From contig CAZJEP010000005.1 of assembly GCA_964545125.1 (NCBI GenBank), positions 1,447 to 65,446 of the forward strand: DNA of 64,000 nucleotides. Direction: 5' to 3'. This DNA comes from an uncultured Gammaproteobacteria bacterium (GTDB lineage: Bacteria; Patescibacteriota; Patescibacteriia; Patescibacteriales; Patescibacteriaceae). A model generated the notes under the pieces. The model was not told where the DNA came from. It searched no databases and saw nothing but the letters and a program-made list of their open reading frames with translations. Shown here one piece after another: positions 5,269-48,907 of the stretch (positions are counted from its first letter, which is position 1; each line of letters opens with the position of its first letter). Position numbers and translations under genes: made by a program.

Positions 5269-6204
5269 CTAAATTGCTAAGGCTTCAAAGATAACTTCCA
5301 CCAACATCCAGGCCAAGAAAATAATAATAATACCAATAATCGCCCACACCAAAATATTTCTTCCCTTTTTAACCTTGGCATCATTGCCGGCCGCTGTCAT
5401 CCAAGTAAAACCTCCAAAAATAATCATAATCAAGAAGATGGAACCAATAATAGCTAAAATAGCTTTGATCACCCGGCCAATCACCTCAGATACATTAACT
5501 GTCTGCAAAGGATTGGTCATGTTGCCATAATCAAAAACTACTTGAGTGGAAACTATGGGCGGTTGATTGCCCCCGCCTGTGCTCCCTGGTTGCTGGGGTT
5601 GTTGTTGAACAACATTTTTGCCGCAACAACATTTGGCGGTGCTAGCATTGGGTTTCTCGCTGTCACGACACCACGTAGGGTCAACGGCCACCACTAAGCC
5701 AACATCAGAACAATTGGCCGCAGTCTGCCAGACACAATGATTTTGGTCGGCGGCGCAAATTTTGGCTTTAACTTTATCATCATTGGTGGTAGCAAAAGCT
5801 GTAGTGGCCGGCAAGAGCCCTTGTCTAAATTCGCATTTGATGGTTCCAGAAAGATTAGAACCTTGTTTGGCGGCACACCGACTGCTTGTAGTGAAGGTTC
5901 CAAAATATTTAGTAGTCCCTGTATTAAAACTAAACAAACCTTTATCAAACTCGCCACAAATACAACAACCAGTAGCCTCGCCTATTTGGCCACAACAACA
6001 ATCCGTATCACCCGTCTTTTTTAGTTGTGGCAAACAAAAACTTTCATCGCTTTTTTTCCAATTAACATCACCGCCACAAGCAGACTGTTCGCCATATTTA
6101 TCAGTGGTGGGCGCCGGAAACCATTGGCAATTTGCCAAAACTACAGCTGGCAGAACCAAAGTAAAAAACGACAACCAAAAAATTTTTGAAAATTTATTAA
6201 GCAT
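5269..6204 (-). CDS. secreted Cys-rich ectodomain fused to a C-terminal VirB2/TrbC-like T4SS pilin two-TM hairpin
   Basis: Signal peptide MLNKFSKIFWLSFFTLVLPAVVLA, about 200 aa with many Cys, then a Q/P/G linker. The C-terminus VIGRVIKAILAIIGSIFLIMIIFGGFTWMTAAGNDAKVKKGRNILVWAIIGIIIIFLAWMLV parallels the neighbouring short pilin. Start trimmed from the track's GTG at 6225 to the ATG at 6204. Confidence 0.6.
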   Translation of the reverse strand: MLNKFSKIFWLSFFTLVLPAVVLANCQWFPAPTTDKYGEQSACGGDVNWKKSDESFCLPQLKKTGDTDCCCGQIGEATGCCICGEFDKGLFSFNTGTTKYFGTFTTSSRCAAKQGSNLSGTIKCEFRQGLLPATTAFATTNDDKVKAKICAADQNHCVWQTAANCSDVGLVVAVDPTWCRDSEKPNASTAKCCCGKNVVQQQPQQPGSTGGGNQPPIVSTQVVFDYGNMTNPLQTVNVSEVIGRVIKAILAIIGSIFLIMIIFGGFTWMTAAGNDAKVKKGRNILVWAIIGIIIIFLAWMLVEVIFEALAI

Positions 6205-6217
6205 ATTTTTATGGGGT

Positions 6218-6613
6218 TTATACACCCAAAGCTTGGAACATAAAAGCTACCAGCATCCAAGATAAGAAAATAATAATCAAAGCAACCGTGGCCCACAGCA
6301 AAACGTTTTTGCCCTGCGCCACTCTACTTTCGTTGCCGGCGGCCGTCATCCAGACAAAGCCACCATAGACAAAAATTAACAGCGCGATGGCTCCGATGAT
6401 AACCAACAAAGCATTAATAACCTTGCCGATAACTTTTGGCAAATCGATAATCGTCCAGCCTTGCGGACCAAGAGGATTGGGCAGGGTCTGGGGGCCAGAC
6501 GCAACCACCGTAGAAACTTGAGGCGGACTATTGGTCGCGCTAACAGTTTTAACTAAAAAAATAGCGCCAAAAAATAAGGCTAAAACAACAAAAATCAACC
6601 ATGATTTTTTCAT
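6218..6613 (-). CDS. VirB2/TrbC-like type IV secretion pilin (short canonical form)
   Basis: 131 aa with a signal peptide, a short mature N-terminus, then VIGKVINALLVIIGAIALLIFVYGGFVWMTAAGNESRVAQGKNVLLWATVALIIIFLSWMLV. This is two TM helices around a short charged loop, the pilin architecture annotated in CPR genomes (from memory). Confidence 0.65.
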   Translation of the reverse strand: MKKSWLIFVVLALFFGAIFLVKTVSATNSPPQVSTVVASGPQTLPNPLGPQGWTIIDLPKVIGKVINALLVIIGAIALLIFVYGGFVWMTAAGNESRVAQGKNVLLWATVALIIIFLSWMLVAFMFQALGV

Positions 6614-16229: not shown

Positions 16230-18161
16230 TTATGCAAAGTTTAGTTGTTTTTTATCTTGACGTTCATTGATGGTGGCCATTTCGGCGGCAAATTCTTTTT
16301 TGGCTTCTTCAATTTCCAAAAGTTGGCGCGGATCGGAAGTGATTAGTTGGTCTTCGGTATAAGAAGCCACTACTTTAATAGCGGCATGTTTATTGCCGGC
16401 AAAAAAGATACCTTCACCCAAGCCACACTCCAACAATAAATATTTTTCTCCTTCGGTCAGCAAAAAAGTTTTTTCCACCAAATCAATAGCGGCCTTAGAT
16501 TGTTTTAAAAGCATTTGCAAGGCAGAGTTATTAACAATGGCTTGACCATAAGGGGAACGCAAAAAGTCGTTGACGTCTTGAGTAATATTAGTTACCCCCA
16601 AATAATATTTACGGCAACGCTTAACCAAAGCAAAAATAAATTTAGCGCTGTCTTCGTGTTGCATCAACCACCAAGCTTCGTCAATCACCAAAATTCTCTT
16701 TTTAATCTTACTACGAACCACGTTCCAAATATAATTAACTACCATATAGATGGCCATCGGTCGTAACTCGTCCTCTAAATCGCGTACCGAGAAAGCCACT
16801 AACTGATTATCCATCTCTACGTTGGTCGGACTGTTAAACAAACCAGCAAAAGTTCCCTGCGTATATTTTCTTAAACGCATAGACAAACTAGCTCCGCCCT
16901 CCATACCTTCTAAAATTTCTTGCAAATCACTCATAATCGGCGGTTCCACTTTGCTTAAATCGCAGTCCGGTGTAATGTCTTTTTTGGCGTAAGTTTCTAG
17001 TAGCGCCCTGTCCATAACCGAATCTTCGTCATAAGTCATGGCACCAATCATAATTTTAATCAAACCCTTAACTGTAATAACGGCGCTGCGAATAATATCT
17101 TCAGTCTTGGTTTGCTCACCTACGGCCCGCGGTAAATCAAAGGGGTTGATTTTGCTTTTAGAGGCTAAAGAAATGTTGATGTAGGTGCCACCGACCGCTT
17201 CAGATAAATGCTTATATTCGTATTCGGGATCGATAATAATTACCTCACAACCAATCATCAAACTACGCAACACTTCTAATTTGACGGCATAACTTTTGCC
17301 GGCGCCGGAGGTGGCAAAAACCACCGAATTAGCATTTTGCAAACTAAACCGATCAAACAAAATCAAACTGTTGTTGTGACGATTAATACCATACAAGATG
17401 CCCTCATCAGAAGTCAGCTCACTAGACACAAAAGGGAAAGACGAAGCTATCGGTGAAGAATTCATATTAAAGGCTACAACCAATTCATCGCGATTTAAGG
17501 GTAAGGTAGAATTAAAACCTTGTTCGGCCTGATAATAAACCCGCTTGGAATAAATCAAACGAGAACCAAAAATATCTTCTACGGTATCAGTTAATTTATC
17601 TAACTCCTCCAAGGCGTCGGCATACAAAGTAACATACAAACAAAATTGAAAAAACTTTTCCGTGCCCTGAGTCAAAGCATCGCGCAAATATTCAATGTCG
17701 CGCAGGGCAGTTTCTCTGATGGGGTCGCGCGCCGCTCCTTTTTCGGCGTCCGAGGCGATTTGCGCCTCAAGATTTCCTGCTTTATTTTTCAATTGCTTTA
17801 AGACTAAAGAAGTTTTAACCGGATAAAAATACATGGCAATATCAAAAGTGGAGTTAAGGTTGATAATCGGAGAAAACCACCCTACGCTGATATAACGAGG
17901 ATAAGTTATAACAAAAACTGTGCGCAAAAACTTTGGCCCAAGTTTAATATGATTAGGAGTAACTTCAAAACTGCTAGGCGCAATTAAATCTTTAATAGAA
18001 ATAATGCCCCGTCGATAAGTCTTTTCTTCCAAAACCAATCGTTCGGTGAGCTGCGCCTCTTTTTCCAATTTTTCCAGGTCGGGTTTTTCTAAAACAAAAC
18101 TCGGCCGTTTAACTTCCGGCTGGTCGGATAATTTTTGATTTTCTTTGTTCAAATCAACCAT
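16230..18161 (-). CDS. virB4: VirB4/TrbE-family type IV secretion ATPase
   Basis: Walker A FATSGAGKSY, Walker B RILVIDEAWWLM, and an N-terminal domain with the ..YPRYISVGWF.. pattern typical of VirB4/TraE proteins. Confidence 0.85.
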   Translation of the reverse strand: MVDLNKENQKLSDQPEVKRPSFVLEKPDLEKLEKEAQLTERLVLEEKTYRRGIISIKDLIAPSSFEVTPNHIKLGPKFLRTVFVITYPRYISVGWFSPIINLNSTFDIAMYFYPVKTSLVLKQLKNKAGNLEAQIASDAEKGAARDPIRETALRDIEYLRDALTQGTEKFFQFCLYVTLYADALEELDKLTDTVEDIFGSRLIYSKRVYYQAEQGFNSTLPLNRDELVVAFNMNSSPIASSFPFVSSELTSDEGILYGINRHNNSLILFDRFSLQNANSVVFATSGAGKSYAVKLEVLRSLMIGCEVIIIDPEYEYKHLSEAVGGTYINISLASKSKINPFDLPRAVGEQTKTEDIIRSAVITVKGLIKIMIGAMTYDEDSVMDRALLETYAKKDITPDCDLSKVEPPIMSDLQEILEGMEGGASLSMRLRKYTQGTFAGLFNSPTNVEMDNQLVAFSVRDLEDELRPMAIYMVVNYIWNVVRSKIKKRILVIDEAWWLMQHEDSAKFIFALVKRCRKYYLGVTNITQDVNDFLRSPYGQAIVNNSALQMLLKQSKAAIDLVEKTFLLTEGEKYLLLECGLGEGIFFAGNKHAAIKVVASYTEDQLITSDPRQLLEIEEAKKEFAAEMATINERQDKKQLNFA

Positions 18162-18200
18162 AATAAAATTAATAATGTAATAACGAAAATTAGCTTTTAC

Positions 18201-21227: not shown

Positions 21228-21263
21228 AAATTTAAATTACCATTGTGCTTTGGGTCTTATAAT

Positions 21264-22424: not shown

Positions 22425-22427
22425 ATT

Positions 22428-25226: not shown

Positions 25227-25228
25227 AT

Positions 25229-25876: not shown

Positions 25877-25964
25877 AAAAAACTCTTTCTTTAATTTAAT
25901 TATATCACTATTTACCGGACCAAGCAAAGAGGAGAAAACGCGCAACGGCCAATATATAACCCGC

Positions 25965-26007
25965 AATAAAAAGGTCAAGCCCCGGCAATTAAGCTTGCCG
26001 GGGCTTG
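25965..26007 (-). terminator. strong intrinsic terminator downstream of the giant gene
   Basis: 13-bp stem caagccccggcaa / ttgccggggcttg with a 6-nt loop, followed on the minus strand by TTTTTATT. Confidence 0.75.
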
Positions 26008-32000: not shown

Positions 32001-34573
32001 GGCACTTTCAAACTCAAGCCTCCCTGATAAATTTGGTTGCCGGGAGTATTATTGACCAAATCTCCGGAAGCAGACCAACGAGCATCATCAGATGCTTCTA
32101 GTCCCCCATCGGCCAATAAATTAACACCGTTATCATCTTTGACTCTGATAAATTCATGACAACCTTCTTGTTTGTAAGCGCAAGCTCCGGTTTTGCGATT
32201 CAAATAAATATTTTGATTATTGAACCAATTAACCGTGTTGTCGGCCCCATTGTAAGTTCCATTATAAGAATATTCCTTGCAACCAATAGCTGATTGCTGA
32301 CAGCCGTAATCCAAAGTATTGGTTAGATAAGAAACTTTCTGTCCTTTGGGATTTTTGAAAGATTGACAAGTGCTAAACAAAGGATCGCAAGCCTCGTCTT
32401 GCCTGTTTTTATTAAAAATCCAAGAACGTTTTTCCTCGGCGCAATAGCCTCTAAACAAACAAGCGCCGTTGCGACCCTCTTTCAAACAGCCTTGTTCGTC
32501 GGCGCAATAATTATCGTTGCGGTTGACTAAAAGTTTTTGTTCATTGTAAGTGCAAGTAGCCTGGCAAGAAAAATTTCTCAATTCCTTTTCTTTGCCAGGA
32601 ATCATCAATTTGTCTCTGGCCCCCAATTCAGCCTCGGTGCAACAATCATCGTTGGTTTCGCAGGCGTCCAGTTTGCCGTCAACAATCATCCTGGTAGATC
32701 CGTTATCAGCCGAACAATACTTCAAGCCAGTTGTCATCAAGTCGGGATCTTTGACTAATTGCGGACCATAACCTTGGCGCGCGCAATAATATTCCGGCAC
32801 TTTCAAGACCCAGTTGGGATCAACCAAACCGCGACACCAAGGAGCGTCATAACCCCTAAAATTGTCATTAGTATTATAACAAGCCAATAAATCATTAAGA
32901 GTTATTCCCTCCGGCTTATCGGCAAAATCATTGGTTAAATATTTTTTCTGAATGGCTTGAGCGGCCACTTCCCATCCCACCGGTAAAATGCGATATTTTC
33001 TTAAAATAATCAGGGAACGATAAGGATAACCTTGGTTATAAGGAATTTTGTCTTCACCGTTTTTATCAAAACCAAAGGGCCAATTACCAGGCAGTTGGCC
33101 GGATCTGACCGCTTCGGCTACCGTCATTTTGTTTTCAATGGCCGTAGAAAATTCGTTGCCAATAACGCAGTCGGTGGGGCCGGGTCGATCCGGATTGGTA
33201 CAAGCGGTTAATTGTGCCAAGATATCTATTTTGCCACCAGCCGAAAATGTCGGTTCGGTTAATTTGCTGAGTCGGTTTTCAATGGCTTGCCGGCCGACCT
33301 GCTGACCAGTCCAATAACTCAAACTGCCACCTTGACTGCCCAAGTTGCTCATCAAGTTGGTCCAAGAACTGATAGCCCACTGATTTAAGAAAATATTGGC
33401 GGCATCCACCAAAATATCCCCGGTAATTTTGCCCAAATTATCCCACACCGCCTGATCGGCCAATTTCTTTCTCTCCTCGGCGCCATTGGGCGCTCCTTTA
33501 AGCAAACCGGCAAAATTAACATCATCTTTATAGCCATTCTTGGACGGCAAAGAAATTTGGTCGTTAATAACTTGCTTATTGCGATATTCAATTAAATTGC
33601 TGTTCAACAGAAAAGCGGCCCCCAAATCACTGCCGGTCGGATGAAAATTATCCGCCACATTTTCCAAAAAATCTTCACTGGCTAAACTTTTTTGACGCTC
33701 CCATTCGTTAACCCAGTTTTTTTTCATTTGGCTAAAACTACAATGAGTCTGCGAACCGTAATACTGGCTTAGACCCAAACCCAAACTAATCATCAAGGAA
33801 ACATTTAGGCTGGGGTTACAAATATTAAGTCTGGCTAAAGGACTATTAGCACCATTAAACATAGGCGCTCGACGAGCCTGCTCTACCGCGCCACCAGCAT
33901 TTTGCGAACAAGCATTATAAGTGGCCAAACAAGCGTTTAAACAAGCTGTGCTGGGTGGTCCTGATTGACTACAATTACTATCGCACCTTCCTTTGGCATC
34001 ACTACACAAACTCAAACCAGCGCTGACATCACCGCTACTATTCAAACAAACATTATAAGCGTCTTCACAGGCCTTGGTTTGCTCTGGAGTATAGGGGCCA
34101 GTGCCCAGCCGAGCATAACATTCCATTTTTTGCTTATCACAAATAACCTTGCTCTCCTTTTTAATATCTTCGGCAGCGATGTCGGAAATAATCGAATTGG
34201 CAAAACTTTCGATAAAATCACCGGCCGCTTGATCGGCAATATCCTCCCAATGATCTCCCCATTTTTTTTCAATGTATAGTTTTTCTTGTCCTTTGGCGCC
34301 GATGGCCAAATATTTAGCCGCGTCTACGGCCAAATCATTGATATATTTACGCAAAAGGTTTTGAAATAAAATAGTGGCCACCTTATTGCGAACATATTCC
34401 CAGGCAGTCTTAATCCAGTTGGCAGTGGCCGGAATATCCGCTACCACCGTCGTGGTATCCGCCACCCCCAAAATTGCCTCGGCTTGAGGCGCCAACAACA
34501 AATTAGACAATAAAATTAAACTAAAAAAAATTAAAGCAATTTTGAGTTTATGTTGCTTGGTGGTTTTAAACAT
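26036..34573 (-). CDS. giant (2845 aa) secreted cysteine-rich surface protein with three CBM/jelly-roll-like modules
   Basis: Uninterrupted 8.5 kb ORF with a signal peptide ...LLLAPQAEA. It has at least 9 copies of a C-x(4,5)-GC-x-x-aromatic motif, for example CQADEVGCELYTE and CSASEVGCSEYEG. Three modules end FFVDNMKFE, LRLDNIKILE and VYFDDVRLE. Confidence 0.85.
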   Translation of the reverse strand: MFKTTKQHKLKIALIFFSLILLSNLLLAPQAEAILGVADTTTVVADIPATANWIKTAWEYVRNKVATILFQNLLRKYINDLAVDAAKYLAIGAKGQEKLYIEKKWGDHWEDIADQAAGDFIESFANSIISDIAAEDIKKESKVICDKQKMECYARLGTGPYTPEQTKACEDAYNVCLNSSGDVSAGLSLCSDAKGRCDSNCSQSGPPSTACLNACLATYNACSQNAGGAVEQARRAPMFNGANSPLARLNICNPSLNVSLMISLGLGLSQYYGSQTHCSFSQMKKNWVNEWERQKSLASEDFLENVADNFHPTGSDLGAAFLLNSNLIEYRNKQVINDQISLPSKNGYKDDVNFAGLLKGAPNGAEERKKLADQAVWDNLGKITGDILVDAANIFLNQWAISSWTNLMSNLGSQGGSLSYWTGQQVGRQAIENRLSKLTEPTFSAGGKIDILAQLTACTNPDRPGPTDCVIGNEFSTAIENKMTVAEAVRSGQLPGNWPFGFDKNGEDKIPYNQGYPYRSLIILRKYRILPVGWEVAAQAIQKKYLTNDFADKPEGITLNDLLACYNTNDNFRGYDAPWCRGLVDPNWVLKVPEYYCARQGYGPQLVKDPDLMTTGLKYCSADNGSTRMIVDGKLDACETNDDCCTEAELGARDKLMIPGKEKELRNFSCQATCTYNEQKLLVNRNDNYCADEQGCLKEGRNGACLFRGYCAEEKRSWIFNKNRQDEACDPLFSTCQSFKNPKGQKVSYLTNTLDYGCQQSAIGCKEYSYNGTYNGADNTVNWFNNQNIYLNRKTGACAYKQEGCHEFIRVKDDNGVNLLADGGLEASDDARWSASGDLVNNTPGNQIYQGGLSLKVPAGRRGVYYGPDDKSLLPGGFAFDFDRIYTLSAFVYVVSGSVEMTMGNSADPANAQVIYSSATGEWQNMVLTLLNDNAAKMDFWKISGISPDTEFFVDNMKFEMGSGGQYSAYRLDNLLYEKLLPNYLEDACYQDKNKDFNFKVDAPAKCSEFARKCQADEVGCELYTEVNTKDQTAAQVKPKDYCPNECVGYDTFIQKANNFYSARDEYFIPKTAKTCQANAVGCSLFVNLDKVPSGGEENQYFAKFRRCGQPDDVYAEFYTWEGSDESGYQLVVYQLLANPDKTSGISQPATIDDTNTADNNDGDACNETLYSLPYDHPLYNSDCRQFYGRDGNVSYHLMASTITYSKECHPYRLVNNNIDVSITDQATCEAKLGHWDADKLNCIVCLNGGVWMDDHQACVYLADPTKSQTCSASEVGCSEYEGDFGNQIKILFYDTFEGSLSGWGPKPPVEMVSDSLTVGGHSLKPGGSQIERSITSNLKIGKRYVLSFTAKKKSDNVNISRIAIESDSGFNQAFADNIDITADWKNYKFDLTIPGEQDVVSSKIKFTLGGQGADLRLDNIKILEMSDTYYLIRNSWTTPDSCNQDLFGNPAPLYMLGCEQYKDRSDKTHNLKGFDKLCQDSAVGCELMIDTHNSSFYGEERFNNIVVPADNFAYVVYEKTKECRVADKGCSRLGQYDDLAEAYKDVYLLNDPNNYKDTMCSKDQVGCEAWGLEGGGEAYFKDPGLRTCEYRQPSSASEPAWYKIKTSHCVSADKGCPVDAQTGKVCGNGKYCVTIGADQYCASKFSCDNQSDCSVGTKCQLIDNDERCDPLDYDKTIGLGVREAKVQPVGMAVKDATGKTLGNAGLCPDNQNSCTEYIDPESKVNYDLLTGVVSGKVKLKLDTLYVLKNITNEITISCTKAVNLNQPNAPGNQRRVRLHRLGEDNIITATDQVKTVKQSEEFYIDGAFFADNSVLLDNQPADCTITPPAGAQIREALVNYRLKTSLNQDKPNTVNPDKGQVLFNERAFNGGKYSPLVWDVNASGVNRDGSEQAPQNASNDNENNANALLKVDPDRQCSAWLGCKSYTENPAKAGDKICYERGLCDQMNESGECIHFVSKDPATNQTYISGSAALDISNLTGYSKVGYEGNYWNADLYNLATMKQEGDAKVKFDGSFENAWQTDFVDFRTATTRAPIVSDAKVIEKELGFGSYKIIPDGRAVGKTNEFVVKEVTNAGNRQYIVSAYVFLRYGAKVELTVGRNLRQRGYDPDYECPFESINDTTANLCNATDADGASIPAAVLASTSVAGRWVRLTGKFSISNAYQRNLPSGLERDTRITIGIKPTAGLVYFDDVRLEPGLNIKDDGSANKIKQYLHSDCRLYPEGNAMSCDYFDDSGLRKKGWTGYCLEYDPKNSGTCLLWYPIDKVESEEYEEGVALNIPKDLYYCVDAYDGCNSSNKTQPEFQCQTFIKVDKESYWYSRIAQDSVYSIPANLLTNFKDSNNLTPTSSYFYADFGVNAGGKATDLVLNQQAGSGYYGAYSSLKPPLFDRLSAGNIRGKIMPFVPYYGISQAGLDKNVTGSERRAYCPGNLDSQKQEPLPIEVSDCNDCSKTDRDVSRDLGVYDDCFVGLAVIWEDGATCENNKCGTWSAKDRKCSTPRGPGGRDFQGNNKYEYITTTNQNGYRVWATNDLMPPLNAYVCYDPSYPRGNRHNQTKCELSKDNATSKFTGWATDYCLDARVCGDSASVGCLFECFNHTNFYRLASDIRDTSSDKTASKKRAVEAVKRLFTKVDNESPCYKWNGQSYDRNSASGCGIGNGQVDFALKNCDNNTRPEYNGSNNDYCLVSPTVPRVKLNDSLLSGDKYVLNDSGWVVINFASKIDKDQLPLKKYVINWGYQKNNHDVTLVRNVNMFERPDITNSHQVYYFLSYDEIKNGGGNCSHNNCQGLPSEIANNPAIDCCEIIPKIILTDNWGATNTFTPNSNPNAGPENHPFLDHPLVVWKNLQ

Positions 34574-34574
34574 A

Positions 34575-35312
34575 TTATTTATTAATCATAGAATGATACA
34601 TTTCTAATAATTGTTCGTCACTTATTTTACCTAAAGCATCTTTGTCTTCCTGTTTAGTAGCGGCCGAAATTAACTGGGAGCGCAAATATTGGGGATCGGG
34701 ATTGTCGCCAAAAGCCTGTTGTAAAGAACCGGCGCTGGCCGAATCAAGGGGCTGGATGGTAACAGGGGTGGTAACAGCTGAACCGTTAGTAGTGGCGCCA
34801 GAGCTATTAAATAAATCAACCGTCGTAGTAACGCCTGAACTAAGCTGTTCACTGCCGATAATCAAACCATCGGCGCTGCATTGTTTGCCTTCAGGACAAT
34901 TAGGGTTAGTGCTATTTTTAATTTCTTGCTGATCCGAAATACCGTCGCCGTCAGTATCCACCAAAAAAGGCGAAGTAAGATAAACGGTTAATTCTTGAAC
35001 ATCGGTCAAACCATCACCGTCCGTATCTTTGTTGTCGGAAGTAGCTAGTGGCGCTTGGTTGGCATTGTCGGCAGCCACTTTATTTTCAAAACTGGTCTTA
35101 CTCATACCTCCGTAAAAAGGGTAAGTAATATTTTTATTCAGCTCTCTGAACCAAAAAATTATGACAAGCAAGGTAAAACAAGACAAAACAGCCACACCAA
35201 TTTTTTGTTCTTTGGTTAGCCGTAAAGAGTGATTGAGATCCACCTGTTTGGGAGAACCTGCCTGTCCGGCGGGCAGGGATTGTAAATCACCAAAATTTGG
35301 CACTTGCGCCAT
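34575..35312 (-). CDS. membrane-anchored protein with thrombospondin type-3-like Ca-binding repeats
   Basis: One TM helix, then DNKDTDGDGLTDVQE and VDTDGDGISDQQE repeats. Its stop lies 1 nt from the giant gene's ATG. Confidence 0.6.
   Translation of the reverse strand: MAQVPNFGDLQSLPAGQAGSPKQVDLNHSLRLTKEQKIGVAVLSCFTLLVIIFWFRELNKNITYPFYGGMSKTSFENKVAADNANQAPLATSDNKDTDGDGLTDVQELTVYLTSPFLVDTDGDGISDQQEIKNSTNPNCPEGKQCSADGLIIGSEQLSSGVTTTVDLFNSSGATTNGSAVTTPVTIQPLDSASAGSLQQAFGDNPDPQYLRSQLISAATKQEDKDALGKISDEQLLEMYHSMINK
35257..35277. repeat. CCTGCC-N9-GGCAGG hairpin element, in frame in the CDS (encodes LPAGQAG)
   Basis: cctgcctgtccggcgggcagg. Confidence 0.8.
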
Positions 35313-39876: not shown

Positions 39877-40602
39877 ATGAATAATTATAACCAACCGACC
39901 CCTACTCTTAACCCCGCACAAAAGAAAAAAACCTGGATATTGATTGCGGTTATTTTGGGTCTCTTTGTTGTTCTGTCTTTATCTATGACCAAATTTGTCG
40001 GCAACAAAGTTGGTCAATTTTACAATTCGGAACAAGCCCGCACCTCCGCCGAAGCCACCGACAATCTGTATAACTCCGAGAAGCAACTTCGTTATGAGGG
40101 CTTGGATAATGTTTGGAATGTTTTTGGTAGCGCTAAACCAAAAATAACTATTGTCGAATTTGGAGATTTTACTTGTCATTACTGCAAAAACAATTATCCC
40201 GTCATCAGGGCCGTGACTATGCGCCACCAAGATACGGTGCAGTTAATTTTTCGCGATCGCACGCCCGACCAGCGCTCTCTCGGTTTGTCGCTAGTAGCGC
40301 AATGCGCCGGTGAACAAGGAAAATTTTGGGTCATGCACGATAAACTGTATCAAAACCAAAGCGATACTTTGGGCAACGACTTTGCGCAACTGCTGACTTT
40401 AGGGCAAAGCATTAATTTGGACGAAACCACTTTTCGTGATTGTTTAATCAAACAAAAATATTTAAGCAAAATCAAAAAAAACATGCAAAGCAGTTTGGAT
40501 TTGGGCATCAAGGGCACCCCGACTTTTTTCATTAACGGCAAAGAATACGTGGGAGAATTATCCGAAAGTCAACTAGAAGAAATAATTAAAGAATTAGAAT
40601 AA
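39877..40602 (+). CDS. membrane-anchored DsbA-family thiol:disulfide oxidoreductase
   Basis: N-terminal TM helix and a thioredoxin fold with FGDFTCHYCK (CxxC). Confidence 0.75.
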   Translation: MNNYNQPTPTLNPAQKKKTWILIAVILGLFVVLSLSMTKFVGNKVGQFYNSEQARTSAEATDNLYNSEKQLRYEGLDNVWNVFGSAKPKITIVEFGDFTCHYCKNNYPVIRAVTMRHQDTVQLIFRDRTPDQRSLGLSLVAQCAGEQGKFWVMHDKLYQNQSDTLGNDFAQLLTLGQSINLDETTFRDCLIKQKYLSKIKKNMQSSLDLGIKGTPTFFINGKEYVGELSESQLEEIIKELE

Positions 40603-42428: not shown

Positions 42429-43262
42429 ATGTCTAAAATCTTCCTAATTCCCACCGGCATTTTTCTATCGTCTTTGGTCGTGTTTAATGTCGCTCAAGCT
42501 GCCAATGACCTTTATTTCACCCCGCAGATTTCCATTCCGGGTAGCGACTTCCAATCGCAACAACAAATTTTGATAAAAAACGACACCAGTTTAATTTGCG
42601 ACTATATTATTGCTGTTTACAAATACGCCATTGCTATCGTGGGCGTCTTGGCAGTGGTCTCAATAGCTATCGGTGGAACGATCTGGATTCTGTCGTCCGG
42701 TAGCAGCAGTATGGTCGGCACCGCCAAAGACTGGATTTTCTCCGGACTCATCGGTTTAATTTTGGCTTTAGGTTCTTTTATGTTGTTGGCTACCATTAAC
42801 AAAGATCTGGTTACCTGCCAAATCTCAAGCGTTCAAGACATAGCCAAAATCAACCAAACCCCTCAACCAACAACCACTGGAAACAACCCTAACAACACCC
42901 CCAACAACAACAATCCCATTAAAGACACTAGCAAAGATTTTGCTAAATACTTTGGCTGTTGCACCTTGTCAAGCGGTTCTTCGCAAACGCTTACCGAAAA
43001 AACGTGTACCGAAAATGGCGGAAGTTGGCAAGCTGATAGTTTCGTTGAAAATAACAAGTGCGTCAAAGGAGCAAATTGTTGCGTGGGAGACGACATGAAT
43101 CATTGGTCTCTTTTCGGCAAGCCGACTTTTAATATTATGATACCCACCAACGCCACCAGCGACAAAGACTGCAAACAACCAGCCAGTTTTTCAGCAAAAA
43201 TTAATTACTGGGACTTGGTAAAAAGTCCTTGCTCGTCCATTGTCGCTAGCGTAACCCCCTAA
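42429..43262 (+). CDS. VirB2-like pilin hairpin with a Cys-rich C-terminal extension
   Basis: Signal peptide, then YKYAIAIVGVLAVVSIAIGGTIWILSSGSSSMVGTAKDWIFSGLIGLILALGSFMLLATIN (two TM helices). An N/P/T-rich linker and a domain of about 110 aa with 9 Cys follow. Confidence 0.55.
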   Translation: MSKIFLIPTGIFLSSLVVFNVAQAANDLYFTPQISIPGSDFQSQQQILIKNDTSLICDYIIAVYKYAIAIVGVLAVVSIAIGGTIWILSSGSSSMVGTAKDWIFSGLIGLILALGSFMLLATINKDLVTCQISSVQDIAKINQTPQPTTTGNNPNNTPNNNNPIKDTSKDFAKYFGCCTLSSGSSQTLTEKTCTENGGSWQADSFVENNKCVKGANCCVGDDMNHWSLFGKPTFNIMIPTNATSDKDCKQPASFSAKINYWDLVKSPCSSIVASVTP

Positions 43263-43284: not shown

Positions 43285-44028
43285 ATGCTGACAAAAATAA
43301 AAAAAATATTATACAAAAAAGTTAAGCCCGTTGTCGGTTACTCGATTTTGGGAGTTATGTTATTTTTAACCGCTTTGCTTGGTTATGATGCCTACAATTC
43401 CGACTTGCTTTTTTTTAATCCCAACCCCGTCACCGAACCAACGGTTTATCCTCTAAGTCCCAAAGAATATAAACAGGCCTTGCTGGAACAAAAACCGATT
43501 GAAACCTTAAGCATGGGAACGCATAACGGCAAACCTAATTTCAAAGACAACATCAAAAAATACGACGGTCTTTTTAAAGAGGCGGCCAAAAAATACAAAG
43601 TTGATTGCACCTTAATAAAAGCTACTATGTTGGCTGAATCACGAGGTAACGCCAAAATCAGAAGCGGAGTCGGCGCGGTTGGCTTAATGCAATTAATGCC
43701 GGCCACGGCGCGCGCTATGGGCTATGGTGGCAATCTTACCGATCCGCGCGTCAACATCATGGCCGGAACCAAATATATGGCGCACTTAAAAGAACGCGGT
43801 TGTCACGAAAAACCGGCCAACGAAGTTTGCGACGTTAAAAAAGACGTTAAATATCGTCTAGCCGCCTATAACGGTGGGCCAAAATGCAATCAACCGGGCA
43901 ACGGCAAGTGTTCCCGACAAACCGCCTGGGAGTGTATTTATTACGATGCCTACGGCCAAACCAGACACTATGTCAATAGAGTTAAGGCTAATTACGAAGA
44001 ACTAAAAAATAAGGGTTGGGGATGCTGA
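43285..44028 (+). CDS. lytic transglycosylase (SLT domain, VirB1-like)
   Basis: LIKATMLAESRGNAKIRSGVGAVGLMQLMPATARAMGY, with an N-terminal TM anchor. Confidence 0.8.
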   Translation: MLTKIKKILYKKVKPVVGYSILGVMLFLTALLGYDAYNSDLLFFNPNPVTEPTVYPLSPKEYKQALLEQKPIETLSMGTHNGKPNFKDNIKKYDGLFKEAAKKYKVDCTLIKATMLAESRGNAKIRSGVGAVGLMQLMPATARAMGYGGNLTDPRVNIMAGTKYMAHLKERGCHEKPANEVCDVKKDVKYRLAAYNGGPKCNQPGNGKCSRQTAWECIYYDAYGQTRHYVNRVKANYEELKNKGWGC

Positions 44029-44138
44029 AAAAGTTCTAAATTTTAAGTTTAAAATTTCAAGTGAAACAACTTTACCCAAAAAACTTAAAACTTAAGCCTT
44101 GAAACTTGAAACTTAAGACACACCTTATCCATAACTAA

Positions 44139-44747
44139 ATGAAAAAAATATTGCTGGCTATCTTAATAATTTCCGTGGCTATTTTGTTGCTTTTCTGGCC
44201 TCTCTCTGGTTGGCAAGGGCCTAAAATAAAATTATTTGCGAAATTATTAACCAAATCCATTGAAAACGTGCGTGAAGATTATGCCAAAAAATCTTGCACC
44301 GAATTTAACAAACAAGAATTGAAACAAGGATATTTTGATGCTCTTGTTACCGGCTATTGCAAACCCAGTCCGGAAAATTTCACCAATCGCGCCGATTTTC
44401 TGTGCGCCGTCGGACTTAATTGTTCCTGCCCCAACGGACGAGATGAAACGGCCGGCTGCGCCCTAGAAGGATCCTTGACTTGGTCTCCCTGTAAAGAATT
44501 TGATAATAAAACTATTCCCTATTGCCATCAGACGGCCACTGGCGCCGAGCCAAAACCTGGCGATGTGGCCGCGGACTGGAATTGTTTTGCTAAAAATTCT
44601 ACCATTAACATTAATAATCAAAATTACCATGTAACCGACAAGGGTTCAGCTATTACCGGGAGGCGCGCCGATATTTGGTTTGCTAATTGTCAAGACGCCT
44701 TTAAAGTAATGGGGATATATAAGGTGGCTATACCAAATAAATTTTAA
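44139..44747 (+). CDS. 3D-domain (MltA/RlpA-like double-psi beta-barrel) cell-wall protein
   Basis: VTGYC...TATGAEPKPGDVAADWN...YHVTDKGSAITGRRADIWF. Confidence 0.6.
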   Translation: MKKILLAILIISVAILLLFWPLSGWQGPKIKLFAKLLTKSIENVREDYAKKSCTEFNKQELKQGYFDALVTGYCKPSPENFTNRADFLCAVGLNCSCPNGRDETAGCALEGSLTWSPCKEFDNKTIPYCHQTATGAEPKPGDVAADWNCFAKNSTININNQNYHVTDKGSAITGRRADIWFANCQDAFKVMGIYKVAIPNKF

Positions 44748-44758
44748 ATTAAAATACC

Positions 44759-46414
44759 ATGTTACTAAATAACATTAAAAAAATATATTTACCGACCTTA
44801 ATCTTTTTACTCTTGACCCCTAGCTTAGTTTTGGCAGCCGACAACGATATTATCTGCCCCGAAGCTCAGGCCACAGAGGTTCTGGTTTATTTTCATGGCC
44901 TCACCCACAACGACCACTCCATTTATGTCAACAGCTTAAACACCTTTAAGTCAGAATTAGCAAAAATAAAAAATCAACGACCAGGCGTGGCCGGCATCCA
45001 TGTCAACAACGAAGCCAACGGAGGCAACTGGAAAGGGGTCAAGGTTAACGTCAGCGCTCTGGTTGACCAAGTCAAGAATAAATGTGGCGTTCAGGCTGGC
45101 GCTAATTTTTACACCACTATCGCCGGCCATAGCGCCGGTGGCTATGCCGTTATTAACAACGCCAATTCAGCCAGCAAAATTATTATTTTAGACGGTATGT
45201 ATTGGCCGGCCGATCCCCTGTTTGACAAGTGTTCCAAGATTAGCGTCATCGGAGGATCCGTGGCCGGTAATGGCGGGACCAAAGACCAAACAACTAGATT
45301 AATAAATAAATGCTATGGAACCAGTGGCTTTAATTCCATAGCCAACAGCGACGGTAAAATCAGCCATGACGGCACTCGCGCCTATTTATCCTCTTTCTAC
45401 CTAAATTCTTCCGGAGTTGTCAGTGTGTCCTCGCCTAATACTAGTCAAAATCAAAATAAAACAAATTCAACATTTAATGTTTCTTTGCCGATGATTAAAA
45501 ACCCCTTCGACAGTTTGCAGGTAATGATTCCGGGCATGCCCAGATTTTCGGACGCTGTTATTAGCGGTTCTGGCAACAATATGAAAATTACCATCAACTG
45601 GATAGGCGAATACATCATGGGAATTTATAATTACGCTATCGGCGTTATCGGTATTTTTTCGGTGGTGGCCATTGCCATTGGCGGCACCATGTGGATTTTG
45701 TCTTTTGGCAATCCGGGTCAAATCATTATCGCCAAGGAATGGATTCTTGGCGCCATTTTGGGCTTGGTATTGGCCCTGGGGTCATATATCCTGCTCAACA
45801 CTATCAATGACGATCTAATTCAAATGAAACCAATAGAATTGGCTTATATTCAAAGAATTGAAGATCCGGGCGATAATGGTTCTGGCGGCGATTACTACCA
45901 TGTCGGTCCTAACCAGGTCGGTCAACCTTACAGCGGTCAAGATCCGAATAATCCTTGTCCGGCCAGCACTCTCCCTGATTTAACGCAATATTATGCTTAC
46001 AAAGCTAACCCTCCTCTTATTTATAGTCAGGATCCTAATAAACGAAGACAGGCGGGATATTGTGATTGCTCCTCGTTCTCTCAACACCTGGCTATTTGTT
46101 CCAGAGCCAATGCTATTGCCGGCGAAGGTCGCACCATAAATTTATTTAAAGATGTCAGTAACAATCGCGAAGAAATCATGGACTGCGACAATCCTCCTAA
46201 AATGTCTCCAGGAGACATTTTTGGCTACTACAGCGATAGCAAAGAAAGAGGCCACGTCTTAACTTACATTGGCAATGGCCAATACATCGAATGTGGCGGT
46301 GAATTCAAAGGCAACACACAAACCCGGGGAGCTATTAAAATTGGCCCCTTTAGAGAAAGATGTTTATCATACAAAAAAAACAATAACATTAAACTCTTCT
46401 TTATTAGTCGATAA
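44759..46414 (+). CDS. tri-partite protein: alpha/beta-hydrolase-like domain, pilin-type two-TM hairpin, and NlpC/P60-like cysteine peptidase
   Basis: N-terminal part has VLVYFHGL and TIAGHSAGGYA (GxSxG). The middle has YNYAIGVIGIFSVVAIAIGGTMWILSFGNPGQIIIAKEWILGAILGLVLALGSYILLNTIN. The C-terminal part has GYCDCSSFSQHL and GHVLTYIGNGQYIECGG. Confidence 0.6.
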   Translation: MLLNNIKKIYLPTLIFLLLTPSLVLAADNDIICPEAQATEVLVYFHGLTHNDHSIYVNSLNTFKSELAKIKNQRPGVAGIHVNNEANGGNWKGVKVNVSALVDQVKNKCGVQAGANFYTTIAGHSAGGYAVINNANSASKIIILDGMYWPADPLFDKCSKISVIGGSVAGNGGTKDQTTRLINKCYGTSGFNSIANSDGKISHDGTRAYLSSFYLNSSGVVSVSSPNTSQNQNKTNSTFNVSLPMIKNPFDSLQVMIPGMPRFSDAVISGSGNNMKITINWIGEYIMGIYNYAIGVIGIFSVVAIAIGGTMWILSFGNPGQIIIAKEWILGAILGLVLALGSYILLNTINDDLIQMKPIELAYIQRIEDPGDNGSGGDYYHVGPNQVGQPYSGQDPNNPCPASTLPDLTQYYAYKANPPLIYSQDPNKRRQAGYCDCSSFSQHLAICSRANAIAGEGRTINLFKDVSNNREEIMDCDNPPKMSPGDIFGYYSDSKERGHVLTYIGNGQYIECGGEFKGNTQTRGAIKIGPFRERCLSYKKNNNIKLFFISR

Positions 46415-46424
46415 AAAGCTAGAT

Positions 46425-47294
46425 ATGACAAAAAATCTTAATTTATTAAGCAATGAACATAGCGCTTGCGCGGGTTGCGGGCAAATTATCGCCTCGCGCG
46501 TGGTGGTTAATACTTTAGGACCAAACACCGTGGTTATTAATGCGACGGGCTGTCTGGAAGTTACCACCTCGCAATATCCTAGTTCGGCCTGGAAACTTCC
46601 CTGGATTCATTCTTTGTTTGCCAATCCAGCTCCTTTGGCCTCCGGGGTTTTGGCGGCTTTGCGACAGCAAAAAAAATCAGCCAAAATCTTAGTTCAGGCC
46701 GGCGATGGCTCCACTTTTGATATCGGCTTTGGCGCGGTTAGCGGCATGTGGGATCGAGGCGATGATATTATTTATGTTTGTTATGACAATGAGATTTACG
46801 CCAACACCGGCATGCAGGCTTCGGCCGCCACACCCTATGGCAGTCGCACTTCCACTACTCCTTATGGCAAACTCTTAGACGGACACAAAAAAAATATGGT
46901 AGAAATCGCCTTATCACACGGTTTGAAATATGTGGCGCAAACTACCGCTGGTTTTATTGACGACTTGAAAGATAAGGTCATTAAAGCCAGCCTTACCAAA
47001 GGTCCGAGTTATATTCAAATCCTCTCCCCTTGTATCCCTGGCTGGTCGGTGGCCATCGCCGAATCGATTAAAGTGGCCCAATTAGCCGCGTTGACCGGTC
47101 TTTACCCTGGTTTGGAATACGTCAACGGCGAATTAACCAAAGTTATTAAGGTCACCAAACCACAAATTAAAGTTTGGGAATACTTGCAATATCAATCACG
47201 CTTTCGCCATTTAGCTAAAACCAAAGAAGGACAAGCTATTTTAGCAGAACTACAAGCCCTGGCTGATAGTAATATCAAAAAATATGGATTATAG
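46425..47294 (+). CDS. porB: pyruvate/2-oxoacid:ferredoxin oxidoreductase beta (TPP-binding) subunit
   Basis: CAGCGQIIASR, TGCLEV and GDGSTFDIGFGAVSG. Start trimmed to the ATG at 46425, 10 nt after the preceding stop. Confidence 0.8.
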   Translation: MTKNLNLLSNEHSACAGCGQIIASRVVVNTLGPNTVVINATGCLEVTTSQYPSSAWKLPWIHSLFANPAPLASGVLAALRQQKKSAKILVQAGDGSTFDIGFGAVSGMWDRGDDIIYVCYDNEIYANTGMQASAATPYGSRTSTTPYGKLLDGHKKNMVEIALSHGLKYVAQTTAGFIDDLKDKVIKASLTKGPSYIQILSPCIPGWSVAIAESIKVAQLAALTGLYPGLEYVNGELTKVIKVTKPQIKVWEYLQYQSRFRHLAKTKEGQAILAELQALADSNIKKYGL

Positions 47295-47347
47295 GTAATA
47301 GGTAGTAAGTTTTTGGTTATAGAAATTAAAAATTACGTCTTAAAAAT

Positions 47348-47404: not shown

Positions 47405-48907
47405 TTATAATTTGATACACTTATTGGCCACACAATCTGGTTGGTTAGAATCAAGGCAATCTCCGCACAACAGGGTTCCGCCACAACCGTCAGCCAAGCG
47501 CCCACATTCAGCTTGACTAGACTGACAATCGGCTGGATTGCAAACCTTGATCGTACCCTTGGTTGAACCGACATTGCCATAAATATCACTAACAGTAATT
47601 TCTAAATCAAAAAATTCGTAGGCTCTACCCGGAGACAAATCAATGCTCTTGGCCACCAAAGCTTTTTGATTGTCAAAATTTTTAATATCTTCCAATTTTA
47701 AACCAGGTTTACTGTTGTCAGACCAGCGCCAGCCACGCCTATACCAATCGTTCCAATCAGCGGTAATTCTTAGGCTACTCCAATCAATCGGGTAGTCGCT
47801 ATTAACCGCCAAATAATCCCTAAACGAACCTTCCCTGGCGTTAAGCGTCCCTAAAATAATATTAATCGTACTAGGATTAGGTAGTTTAATAGGATTGCCC
47901 AAACAATTAAGATCTTCGGGTATACCGGCATATTTGGTTTCAAAATTGGCGCAAAACAAATAAACATTTGTTTTGGGGTCCCAAGAATAAGCAAAAGCCA
48001 AAGAACCTTCAGGGAAATAATCCGGGTAAATAAAACTGGAAGCATATTTTTTATCGACTTCGTTCCAGCAAGTAACGCTGTCAAAGCTGGCTGGACAGTT
48101 TTGCAACCTATTGACCGGATCCTGAGGCAGCTTATAACCTAAAGTCTTACCCAGGGTTTCATTCCAGCTCGGCCAAACGGAAATGGATTTATTGGGCAAA
48201 TAAGAACCGGAAGGCAATCCAGGATACTTTTTGTTTTTTCCATTATAAACTTCAAAAGCTATTTTAGCTTCTCTCATATCAGCCATTCTCTTAACATCAC
48301 GCACCAACTTAGCCTTGACACTATCGCAGTATTGACCATAAGAACATTCGTCCGACAAAAGACATTTCTTAACACAAAAAAAGTTACCACTACCGTCGTC
48401 TTCGCAAGAATTGTCTATAAACTTTCCAGTACAACCCTTGGCCATGTCACAAGATTCGGTGCTTTTTGGCTGGCAAATTCCCGGACCGGTTTTATCCACC
48501 AAATCGGCGTTAAACTTCCAATACTGCAATAATTGTCCAAAAATGTCCCTGGTTTCGTCAGTGGCTTGTTGATTAAAGGAAATAATATAAATATTGGTAT
48601 ACAGCATATCAGGCGACCAGTTGGGAGTTTGAGCTGGCACCACATTAGCGGCATTAACATATACCGTGCGACCGTCGCGCACCGCTTCATAGCCGTTGAC
48701 AATCAACGACTGAGGGGCGCCCTTAATATCCACATTGTCGTAATACCAGGCCAAAGGAGATTCGTGATCAGGATTGGGCATCACCCGGACGGCAATCGCG
48801 TCAGGCGAAGAATCCGTCGCCGCATTAATCGACCAAAACGATAAAAATAAACCTAAACAAAAAAATAGGGTTAATAAATTTAATTTGTTGCTAATACTAG
48901 AAAGCAT
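47405..48907 (-). CDS. secreted hypothetical protein with Cys-rich central and C-terminal segments
   Basis: Signal peptide, and a C-terminal CNPADCQSSQAECGRLADGCGGTLLCGDCLDSNQPDCVANKC. Confidence 0.5.
   Translation of the reverse strand: MLSSISNKLNLLTLFFCLGLFLSFWSINAATDSSPDAIAVRVMPNPDHESPLAWYYDNVDIKGAPQSLIVNGYEAVRDGRTVYVNAANVVPAQTPNWSPDMLYTNIYIISFNQQATDETRDIFGQLLQYWKFNADLVDKTGPGICQPKSTESCDMAKGCTGKFIDNSCEDDGSGNFFCVKKCLLSDECSYGQYCDSVKAKLVRDVKRMADMREAKIAFEVYNGKNKKYPGLPSGSYLPNKSISVWPSWNETLGKTLGYKLPQDPVNRLQNCPASFDSVTCWNEVDKKYASSFIYPDYFPEGSLAFAYSWDPKTNVYLFCANFETKYAGIPEDLNCLGNPIKLPNPSTINIILGTLNAREGSFRDYLAVNSDYPIDWSSLRITADWNDWYRRGWRWSDNSKPGLKLEDIKNFDNQKALVAKSIDLSPGRAYEFFDLEITVSDIYGNVGSTKGTIKVCNPADCQSSQAECGRLADGCGGTLLCGDCLDSNQPDCVANKCIKL

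Follow-up and report, generated by a model that had tools for sequence, protein, structure and literature searches.

The T4SS (type IV secretion system), together with its VirB2-like pilins, is indispensable to the epibiotic lifestyle of the one Patescibacterium that is open to genetics (PMC10633639, PMC12102498, PMC12857230). The described pilins of Pfam family PF18895 in this phylum are ~110-240 amino acids (aa) long, have no enzymatic parts and occur in arrays, as in Southlakia epibionticum and Nanosynbacter (Wang et al. 2023, PMC10633639; Quinonero-Coronel et al. 2025, PMC12102498). Reviews credit members of the candidate phyla radiation (CPR) only with the 'potential to elaborate conjugative pili', no T4SS pilus having been demonstrated (PMC12857230), and where CPR genomes have VirB2-like pilins, in most cases no VirB1 can be recognised (PMC12102498). 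VirB1-like hydrolases with two domains are found in monoderm T4SSs, for example TraG (pIP501), PrgK (pCF10), CwlT (ICEBs1) and the Orf14 type of Tn916 (cited in PMC12102498). Here we describe a gene at 44759..46414 (+ strand) of a 64,000-nucleotide stretch of DNA from an uncultured bacterium of the Patescibacteriaceae by GTDB lineage (contig CAZJEP010000005.1 of assembly GCA_964545125.1, positions 1,447 to 65,446; hereafter the window). Its 551-aa product is predicted to hold a PF18895-type helical hairpin between an alpha/beta-hydrolase domain and an NlpC/P60 peptidase domain.

The hairpin of the 551-aa protein belongs to the same domain and comes from the same phylum as the described PF18895 pilins, and it has in common with them a signal peptide, an IPG-type motif, two helices, a GN(P/A)S...K loop and an LNTINPDLV exit. 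Unlike these pilins, the protein carries the hairpin internally, flanked by two hydrolases, and its gene lies outside the T4SS cluster and the pilin array. With the monoderm VirB1-like hydrolases it shares membrane tethering, an extracytoplasmic position and two activities; in the monoderm enzymes a CHAP or NlpC/P60 cysteine peptidase provides one of the two. Also like the monoderm T4SS hydrolases, it has a C-terminal domain whose profile matches a Tn916-like Orf16 (9ubf), and an SLT enzyme is encoded in the same gene cassette. The anchor differs, being a central pilin-type hairpin rather than an N-terminal transmembrane (TM) segment or lipobox, and so does the partner domain, which is an alpha/beta-hydrolase esterase rather than a glycosidase. 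By location in a T4SS operon the gene would not count as VirB1-like, as virB4 is ~25 kb off. PF18895 pilins and their arrays in CPR T4SSs, NlpC/P60 and SLT enzymes in monoderm T4SSs and modular type IV pilins are all already known. No description of PF18895-hydrolase fusions or of their swapping at one locus was found in the searchable full-text literature, the coverage of which is incomplete; the databases already contain proteins of the family as 'NlpC/P60 family protein' or 'hypothetical'.

The gene is an open reading frame (ORF) with an ATG start 11 nt past the stop of the upstream gene. Its features are as follows, with residues numbered in the product, structures from AlphaFold2 (AF2) and model confidence given as pLDDT (predicted local distance difference test):
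44759..46414, + strand: whole gene; signal peptide, alpha/beta-hydrolase, pilin hairpin, NlpC/P60
44759..44839, + strand: Sec-type signal peptide, residues 1-27; KK n-region, hydrophobic core and VLA/A cleavage-like site
44843..45412, + strand: predicted lid-less, carboxylesterase-like alpha/beta-hydrolase, residues 29-218; from AF2, Foldseek and a conserved triad
45131-45133, 45191-45193 and 45365-45367, + strand: codons of the N-domain triad S125, D145 and H203; oxyanion motif H46-G47
45413..45484, + strand: Ser/Asn/Thr linker, residues 219-242; low-complexity and disordered, pLDDT <50 at 218-242
45485..45598, + strand: pre-hairpin motif LPxIxNPFDxLQVxIPGMxRFS and short beta-hairpin, residues 243-280; from conservation
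45599..45823, + strand: PF18895 pilin-type helical hairpin, residues 281-355; from profile homology and AF2
45824..45940, + strand: acidic linker with a D-P-G-D motif, residues 356-394; pLDDT low at ~366-368
45941..46411, + strand: NlpC/P60 (C40) endopeptidase domain, residues 395-551; from profile comparison with the PDB and motifs
46067-46069, 46253-46255 and 46289-46291, + strand: codons of the C-domain catalytic residues C437, H499 and E511

A preliminary description of this DNA had proposed an esterase-like part, a hairpin and an NlpC/P60 part, and our profile and structure tests back all three. The motifs that it named were all located: VLVYFHGL (with H46 and G47) and GHSAG (residues 123-127, with S125) in the N-terminal part, and CDCSSF (C437) and GHVLTYIGNG (H499) in the C-terminal part. 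The AF2 model of the full protein had a mean pLDDT of 83.2. A Kyte-Doolittle scan found exactly three hydrophobic segments, the signal peptide (~8-27), TM1 (~286-312) and TM2 (~328-348), and spaced TM1 and TM2 by a 13-15-residue loop that contains K326. The cleavage site of the signal peptide was read by eye from the sequence; an equivalent hydrophobic leader is present in every family member (P numbers are family proteins and L numbers are loci on related contigs). Because two membrane passes separate them, the esterase and the peptidase should lie on the same side of the membrane, and because of the N-terminal signal peptide this side should be the outside. Opposite-side placement would need one hairpin helix to fail to span the membrane, and on this predicted topology it cannot apply.

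The fusion is not an assembly or frameshift artefact, as the three-part order recurs in ~10 independent representatives, and lipoprotein anchoring was ruled out, there being no lipobox ahead of C33. A single-sequence search of PDB sequences with the whole protein returned noise-level matches only. In the acidic linker, G371 and D372 are nearly invariant among the NlpC/P60-type family members. The D-P-G-D motif as a whole (residues 368-373, window ~45860-45877) stands right behind the hairpin and is nearly invariant in the NlpC/P60 members, including P0003-P0006 and P0026; it is absent from members with SLT, M15 or C39 domains, which have acidic linkers only.

At the profile level the hairpin is clearly homologous to bona fide PF18895 pilins, as judged from sequence comparison. 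The single protein scored 20.2 bits against PF18895 T4SS_pilin (E 6.3e-4; residues 281-345, profile positions 4-67 of 71), for which the Pfam gathering cut-off is 26.6 bits. PF18895 was matched by 26 of the 30 family relatives, with a best E of 1.5e-8, and hhalign aligned the family hairpins with the 131-aa pilin encoded in the window (6218..6613) at a probability of 96% (E 2.9e-9). With a cut at E<1e-5, a hairpin profile brought up 674 database proteins; those with the highest scores are short proteins with PF18895, several of them listed by NCBI as 'pilin [Patescibacteria group bacterium]'. The earlier assignment of the hairpin to the pilin family thus held at the profile level and fell short in the single-sequence Pfam score. 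AF2 placed the hairpin helices at residues 281-314 and 319-349, joined by the loop GNPGQIIIAK with K326 and followed by the exit motif LLNTINDDLI. An LNTINPDLV-type motif past helix 2 is common to the hairpin family and to 111-129-aa pilins, and the IPG-type motif ahead of helix 1 occurs in short PF18895 pilins too; P249, P258 and G259 are nearly invariant across 30 family sequences. The likeness to the neighbouring pilin-like gene, first seen by eye, proved to be far above chance: BLASTP aligned residues 282-367 with residues 56-141 of its 277-aa product (42429..43262), with 48% identity over 86 residues (E 5e-25).

Direct likeness to VirB2, which the preliminary description had also implied, was not borne out. 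The hairpin profile matched no pilin chain among PDB sequences, and the hhalign probabilities against VirB2 (19%) and TraA (0.6%) were not significant, although both target sequences possibly contain errors. TM helices of a sensory rhodopsin transducer, which appeared in the PDB search at E>3, were taken as composition matches and rejected as relatives. The term 'VirB2-like' for PF18895 comes from the structural annotation in the literature (PMC10633639, PMC12102498), and because the hhalign comparisons with VirB2 and TraA were not significant, we claim no direct VirB2 homology beyond PF18895 membership.

The helices of the hairpin were well conserved. Among the same genomes, TM1 was 56-74% identical and TM2 55-79% identical, where the one TM segment that anchors the adjacent SLT protein reached 21-54%. 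The hairpin is therefore more constrained than hydrophobicity demands, as would fit a specific packing of its helices or the binding of a partner.

The N-terminal domain, modelled alone by AF2, gave a pLDDT of 90.5 and a pTM (predicted template modelling score) of 0.90. In this model a strand at residues 118-124 leads into the nucleophile elbow G-H-S125-A-G and a helix starts at residue 127. When Foldseek was run against the PDB, the best 50 of 76 matches (E<=0.001) all had the alpha/beta-hydrolase fold, with a probability of 1.0 and TMq of 0.5-0.63; they were esterases, thioesterases and lipases, with no subfamily prominent and identities of at most 16%. Across 11 homologues of the domain H46-G47, S125 (in AGHSxGG), D145 (in IxLDxxY) and H203 are invariant, and the Ser-Asp-His order together with the HG oxyanion motif is, by sequence, the alpha/beta-hydrolase pattern. 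The esterase-like assignment made earlier thus gains a fold and an invariant triad, with the catalytic residues present on alignment. Profile libraries, to which the preliminary description had pointed, gave no such support: there was no Pfam match at E<0.1, and no Pfam or NCBIfam model fits the domain, with sub-threshold matches to Abhydrolase_6, Hydrolase_4 and PAE in some relatives only. A word-indexed homologue search with the domain alone gave zero matches, and an exhaustive phmmer search of 1.84 billion cluster representatives gave 12 relatives at E<1e-10. The best PDB match of the N-domain profile, LytB/IspH (E 0.001), was spurious, as the alignment fails to cover the nucleophile motif sensibly, and the other matches were sub-threshold lipases aligned on AGHSxGG. 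Taken with the model, the domain is effectively an unmodelled family of ~12 representatives, predicted to be a divergent, lid-less, carboxylesterase-like hydrolase.

The C-terminal domain was assigned through its relatives. The sequence itself scored 14.5 bits against Pfam PF00877 NLPC_P60 (cut-off 23 bits), and 10 of the 30 family members matched this family at E<0.01, the best at 3.1e-5. A profile of 10 homologous domains matched the PDB sequences of the DL-endopeptidase CwlO (1.5e-8), 7cfl (2.6e-6), RipB (1.2e-5) and Spr/MepS (7.4e-5), and further matches were endolysin Lys2972 and the Tn916-like Orf16 hydrolase. In these alignments DCSSF and GHV fall onto the catalytic Cys and His of CwlO. 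D436-C437-S438 and G498-H499-V500 are invariant, the residue 12 past the His is acidic in 10 out of 10 sequences (E511 here) and, in the AF2 model, a helix begins at residue 437. Foldseek matched the domain to Lys2972 (8tw1) with an E of 6.9e-4 and 20% identity. The NlpC/P60-like character put forward earlier is thus upheld, with the catalytic Cys and His in place and a profile match to solved members. The domain has the same Cys-His-polar triad spacing and the same DCSxF and GHVxxYxG motifs as the DL-endopeptidases CwlO, LytF, Spr/MepS and RipA/B, but is very divergent from them and Cys-rich, with probable disulfides, and its third triad residue is Glu or Asp.

The preliminary description had treated the fusion as a singular oddity; what we found instead is a recurrent modular family with exchangeable enzyme domains. 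Close homologues of ~330 aa have a signal peptide, the NPFDxLQVxIPGMxRF motif and a hairpin that is 50-70% identical, followed by C-terminal domains that are not homologous to each other. Four kinds of C-terminal domain were seen on the family hairpin: NlpC/P60, SLT, VanY/M15 and C39-like. Another ~10 three-part proteins carry the N-terminal esterase, joined to NlpC/P60 (P0026), M15/VanY-like or C39-like domains, and in two proteins it stands alone.

The exchange can be followed at the orthologous position, where the common gene order is LeuRS, Exo/endo-phosphatase, DsbA, PORγ, PORα, pilin-like, SLT, 3D, hairpin-X, PORβ, orf500, Fpg and PfkB (POR, 2-oxoacid:ferredoxin oxidoreductase). The X domain of the hairpin gene is:
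window and L003: NlpC/P60
L004 and L005: C39_2
L006: M15_4
L007: SLT
L008: esterase and C39_2
In the more distant L009, a pair of pilin-like genes is still embedded in the DsbA-POR locus. Compared with the orthologous loci, the proteins flanking the gene were 50-86% identical and the hairpin 55-64%, while the C-terminal domain of the 551-aa protein had no match in L004-L007. DNA homology to the closest relative, L004, extended over 43918-44764, 45596-45856 (the hairpin only) and 46439-47299. The breaks, at 44764/45596 and 45856/46439, coincide exactly with the borders of the esterase (44765-45595) and NlpC/P60 (45857-46438) modules. Read from the sequences, this is the pattern of module insertion and replacement at an orthologous locus, rather than of a unique fusion, and it suggests a 'carrier plus exchangeable lytic tool' design not described before. 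Mobile-element or phage cargo was ruled out, the locus being syntenic with housekeeping genes across contigs. The flanks of all 8 related loci were free of virB4, and in the window and L003-L007 the hairpin gene is followed within 10-30 nt by PORβ and not by an immunity-like ORF.

In the window, the 551-aa gene is the last of four same-strand genes (pilin-like, SLT, 3D and 551-aa). This cassette splits the por operon, with PORγ and PORα upstream and PORβ downstream; the DsbA gene lies further upstream. The genes around the 551-aa gene are:
39877..40602, + strand: DsbA-like thiol-disulfide oxidoreductase; orthologues in L002-L009 with Thioredoxin_4/DSBA, 33-75% identity
40605..42300, + strand: 2-oxoacid:ferredoxin oxidoreductase gamma and alpha subunits; Pfam POR, POR_N and PFOR_II
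42429..43262, + strand: pilin-like paralogue, 277 aa; signal peptide, hairpin and Cys-rich C-terminal domain, PF18895 18.6 bits
43285..44028, + strand: membrane-anchored SLT lytic transglycosylase, 247 aa; Pfam SLT 75.8 bits
44139..44747, + strand: membrane-anchored 3D-domain (MltA/YuiC-like) protein, 202 aa; Pfam 3D 22.8 bits against a cut-off of 23.8, NCBIfam SpsC weak
46425..47294, + strand: 2-oxoacid:ferredoxin oxidoreductase beta subunit; Pfam TPP_enzyme_C, orthologues of 288-301 aa

The free SLT protein and the SLT domain borne on the hairpin of P0012 share 48% identity (E 3e-55), and SLT and 3D genes also flank the hairpin-NlpC/P60 gene P0015, which stands in another context. Given the P0012-type fusion and the flanks of P0015, we regard the SLT, 3D and hairpin hydrolases as functionally linked. 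The position of the 3D gene is kept in L003-L007. The operon structure of the cassette is taken from its 10-130-nt gaps and co-orientation only; a scan for promoters and terminators showed no enrichment over shuffles (22 vs 18±4 and 13 vs 9.6±3.2, respectively). The hairpin of the paralogue was 44-67% identical to those of its orthologues (310-477 aa), and its C-terminal head, with 10 Cys residues, had no match in any orthologous locus. This head looks like another hypervariable one borne by this type of hairpin, and may be a binding or adhesin module.

The domain identities, the catalytic residues, the logic of the topology, the family modularity and the module swapping are obtained directly from the comparisons above. 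Taking them together, we think it reasonably probable that the 551-aa protein is a surface-exposed, membrane-embedded envelope hydrolase with two enzymes on a pilin-type carrier module, working in a lytic tool-kit (SLT, 3D, endopeptidase and esterase) whose heads are exchanged among close relatives. After Sec export and cleavage of the signal peptide, the hairpin would sit in the cytoplasmic membrane with its ends outward and its K-containing loop in the cytoplasm. The esterase (S125/D145/H203) and the NlpC/P60 enzyme (C437/H499/E511) would then be held next to each other at the surface of the cell by flexible linkers. The hairpin and the NPFDxLQVxIPG motif would form the carrier, to which an NlpC/P60, SLT, M15/VanY or C39-like enzyme is joined at the C-terminus and, optionally, an esterase at the N-terminus. 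Likely partners are the paralogous pilin-like protein with its variable Cys-rich head, the SLT transglycosylase and the 3D-domain enzyme, and the DsbA encoded upstream probably oxidises the many cysteines of the cassette proteins.

From this arrangement we infer substrates, a target wall and a physical link to a T4SS or pilus. The job of the 551-aa protein would be to cut peptidoglycan stem peptides locally and to remove an ester-linked envelope substituent or lipid, at the place where pilin-type machinery crosses a wall. It would thereby supply the VirB1-like lytic function that is mostly absent from CPR T4SS loci, and VirB1-type activities fused to a VirB2-type hairpin would offer an explanation of the scarcity of VirB1 in these loci. 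The wall under attack would most probably be that of the host cell, at the contact zone. We favour a host-facing role over a housekeeping one because bond specificities are exchanged and because the head of the paralogue is hypervariable. The hairpin-hydrolase family provides concrete, testable candidates for how ultrasmall cells breach their own or a host wall, and the swapping points to a possible host-range determinant. In addition, an unmodelled alpha/beta-hydrolase family is defined and the 'modular pilin' concept is carried from type IV pili to T4SS-type pilins.

Several observations weigh against the two-enzyme hydrolase on a pilin-type carrier. As single sequences, the pilin part (20.2 vs 26.6 bits) and the NlpC/P60 part (14.5 vs 23 bits) both fall below their Pfam cut-offs, and the substrate of the esterase could not be narrowed, as the Foldseek matches were generic carboxylesterases of at most 16% identity. 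The cassette is ~25 kb from virB4, with none adjoining in the 8 related loci, and sits in the housekeeping por operon; its T4SS link therefore comes from domain homology and not from location. Finally, the core-genome synteny could equally fit a housekeeping autolysin.

In that alternative, the hairpin is a two-pass anchor derived from a pilin gene and the protein, with the SLT and 3D enzymes, remodels the cell's own peptidoglycan for growth and division, with no link to a T4SS or a host. The locus is part of the core genome, syntenic among LeuRS, DsbA, POR, Fpg and PfkB in at least 8 contigs; neither mobile-element nor T4SS genes lie close by, and the next ORF, 10 nt past the stop, is PORβ and not an immunity-like one, all of which suits a housekeeping enzyme. 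Anchoring modes also look interchangeable, since the SLT domain has a plain TM anchor here and is fused to the hairpin in relatives. However, a swap of catalytic domains across bond specificities (endopeptidase, transglycosylase, M15 carboxypeptidase and C39-like) at an orthologous position would be unusual for an autolysin, the hairpin and the pre-hairpin motif are conserved well beyond a plain anchor, and the head of the paralogue is hypervariable too. We therefore consider a purely housekeeping role unlikely. Were the hairpin only an anchor, the finding would shrink to an unusual but ordinary autolysin family.

The preliminary description had gone further than the carrier proposed here, to a modular T4SS pilin in which the hairpin is extracted from the membrane and built into a VirB2-like pilus of the CPR T4SS, showing the esterase and the peptidase on the filament to drill the host wall. 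The protein would then probably be a minor, tip or base subunit beside the short pilins and the 277-aa paralogue. This idea draws on the homology to the PF18895 pilin domain, including the IPG and NTINPDLV motifs, and on hairpin helices whose conservation exceeds that of a plain TM anchor. The hairpin is expected to have its two termini on the extracytoplasmic side, which is the surface-exposed side in F-type pili. The enzyme heads and the head of the paralogue vary among close relatives, as expected for host-facing parts, the genome has a VirB4 and canonical pilins, and CPR pilin arrays are essential in Southlakia (PMC10633639). A precedent exists in Streptococcus sanguinis, whose modular type IV pilins PilB and PilC (Raynaud et al. 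2021, PMC8179133) share with the 551-aa protein the design of a small pilin with a module grafted through a short linker, in many architectures, and present the grafted modules at the pilus tip. They belong to an unrelated filament system and have a class III signal peptide, a single N-terminal helix and modules that, where described there, are mostly binding domains; compared with them, the 551-aa protein has a VirB2-type hairpin and cargo on both ends. Against incorporation into a filament, a T4SS pilus has yet to be observed in CPR bacteria (PMC12857230), bulky domains of ~190 aa and ~157 aa on both ends would clash in the tightly packed helical lattice of the VirB2 type unless the subunit were rare or terminal, no examined locus adjoins T4SS genes, and sequence similarity to solved VirB2/TraA pilins is undetectable. 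On these grounds we regard a filament subunit as doubtful. We hold it equally unlikely, if worth stating, that hairpin subunits with exchangeable lytic heads form a host-specific wall drill at the tip or base of the essential CPR T4SS pilus, with head swaps at a fixed chromosomal locus tracking the chemistry of the host wall. If this held, T4SS pilins would have their first enzyme-bearing example, and a VirB2-VirB1 fusion would account for the lack of VirB1 in most CPR T4SS loci.

Polymorphic toxin and effector systems combine a conserved N-terminal trafficking module with a variable C-terminal toxin domain. The hairpin locus resembles them in exchanging non-homologous C-terminal enzymes at one position, with DNA homology breaking at the domain border; it differs from them in lacking a downstream immunity gene, in carrying wall hydrolases rather than nucleases or deaminases, and in being a core syntenic locus rather than an island. 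Release of the C-terminal enzyme by cleavage at the D-P-G-D linker, with the hairpin as a secretion or trafficking handle and delivery to the host envelope as a soluble polymorphic toxin, is very improbable: a conserved N-terminal module before a variable enzyme and the nearly invariant G371-D372 (DPGD) behind the hairpin in the NlpC/P60 group would suit it, but there is no adjacent immunity gene, DPGD is absent from the SLT, M15 and C39 members, no protease or autoprocessing domain was identified and the N-terminal esterase would stay tethered.

The T4SS-related genes of the window lie away from the cassette:
16230..18161, - strand: VirB4-like T4SS ATPase, 643 aa; Pfam P-loop_TraG 95.4 bits, AAA_10 and weak CagE_TrbE_VirB
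5269..6613, - strand: two PF18895 pilin genes, 318 aa and 131 aa; T4SS_pilin 44.7 and 44.2 bits, above 26.6

The VirB4-like gene is ~25 kb from the 551-aa gene, with unrelated genes between them. Ahead of it lies a separate ORF of 223 aa that weakly matches TraC_F_IV at the N-terminus (together 16230-18872, - strand), and the two may represent a split or two-gene VirB4, or a frameshift. Large ORFs near it (19935-25978) have no Pfam matches and could be divergent T4SS membrane components. The 318-aa and 131-aa pilin genes overlap by 8 nt, and the 318-aa pilin has a long Cys-rich N-terminal extension with the hairpin at the C-terminus. With such an extension present, cargo can occupy either end of this pilin type in one genome.

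The splitting of the por operon by a cell-wall/pilin cassette, with gaps of 10-130 nt and always beside DsbA, was seen in at least 7 related metagenomic contigs; in distant relatives PORβ stands between the two pilin-like genes. In the window, the PORβ reading frame at its longest runs from a TTG (46269), which would give a 146-nt overlap with the 551-aa gene. As the orthologues have 288-301 aa and an ATG lies at 46425, 10 nt past the 551-aa stop, we take this ATG as the real start, with no true overlap. Directly downstream of the cassette, 47405-48907 (- strand) encodes a 500-aa secreted Cys-rich protein with no Pfam match, which has the same position in L002-L007 at 43-63% identity. Elsewhere in the window, a 2845-aa ORF (26036-34573, - strand), in which CBM_4_9 is the single recognisable domain, is followed by an ORF at 34575-35312 (- strand) with bacterial TSP3 (calcium-binding) repeats; from their sequences, both products are probably surface or adhesion proteins of the epibiont. 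The window is part of a chromosome of Patescibacteria type, and homologues of its proteins come from sources labelled Patescibacteria or Parcubacteria.

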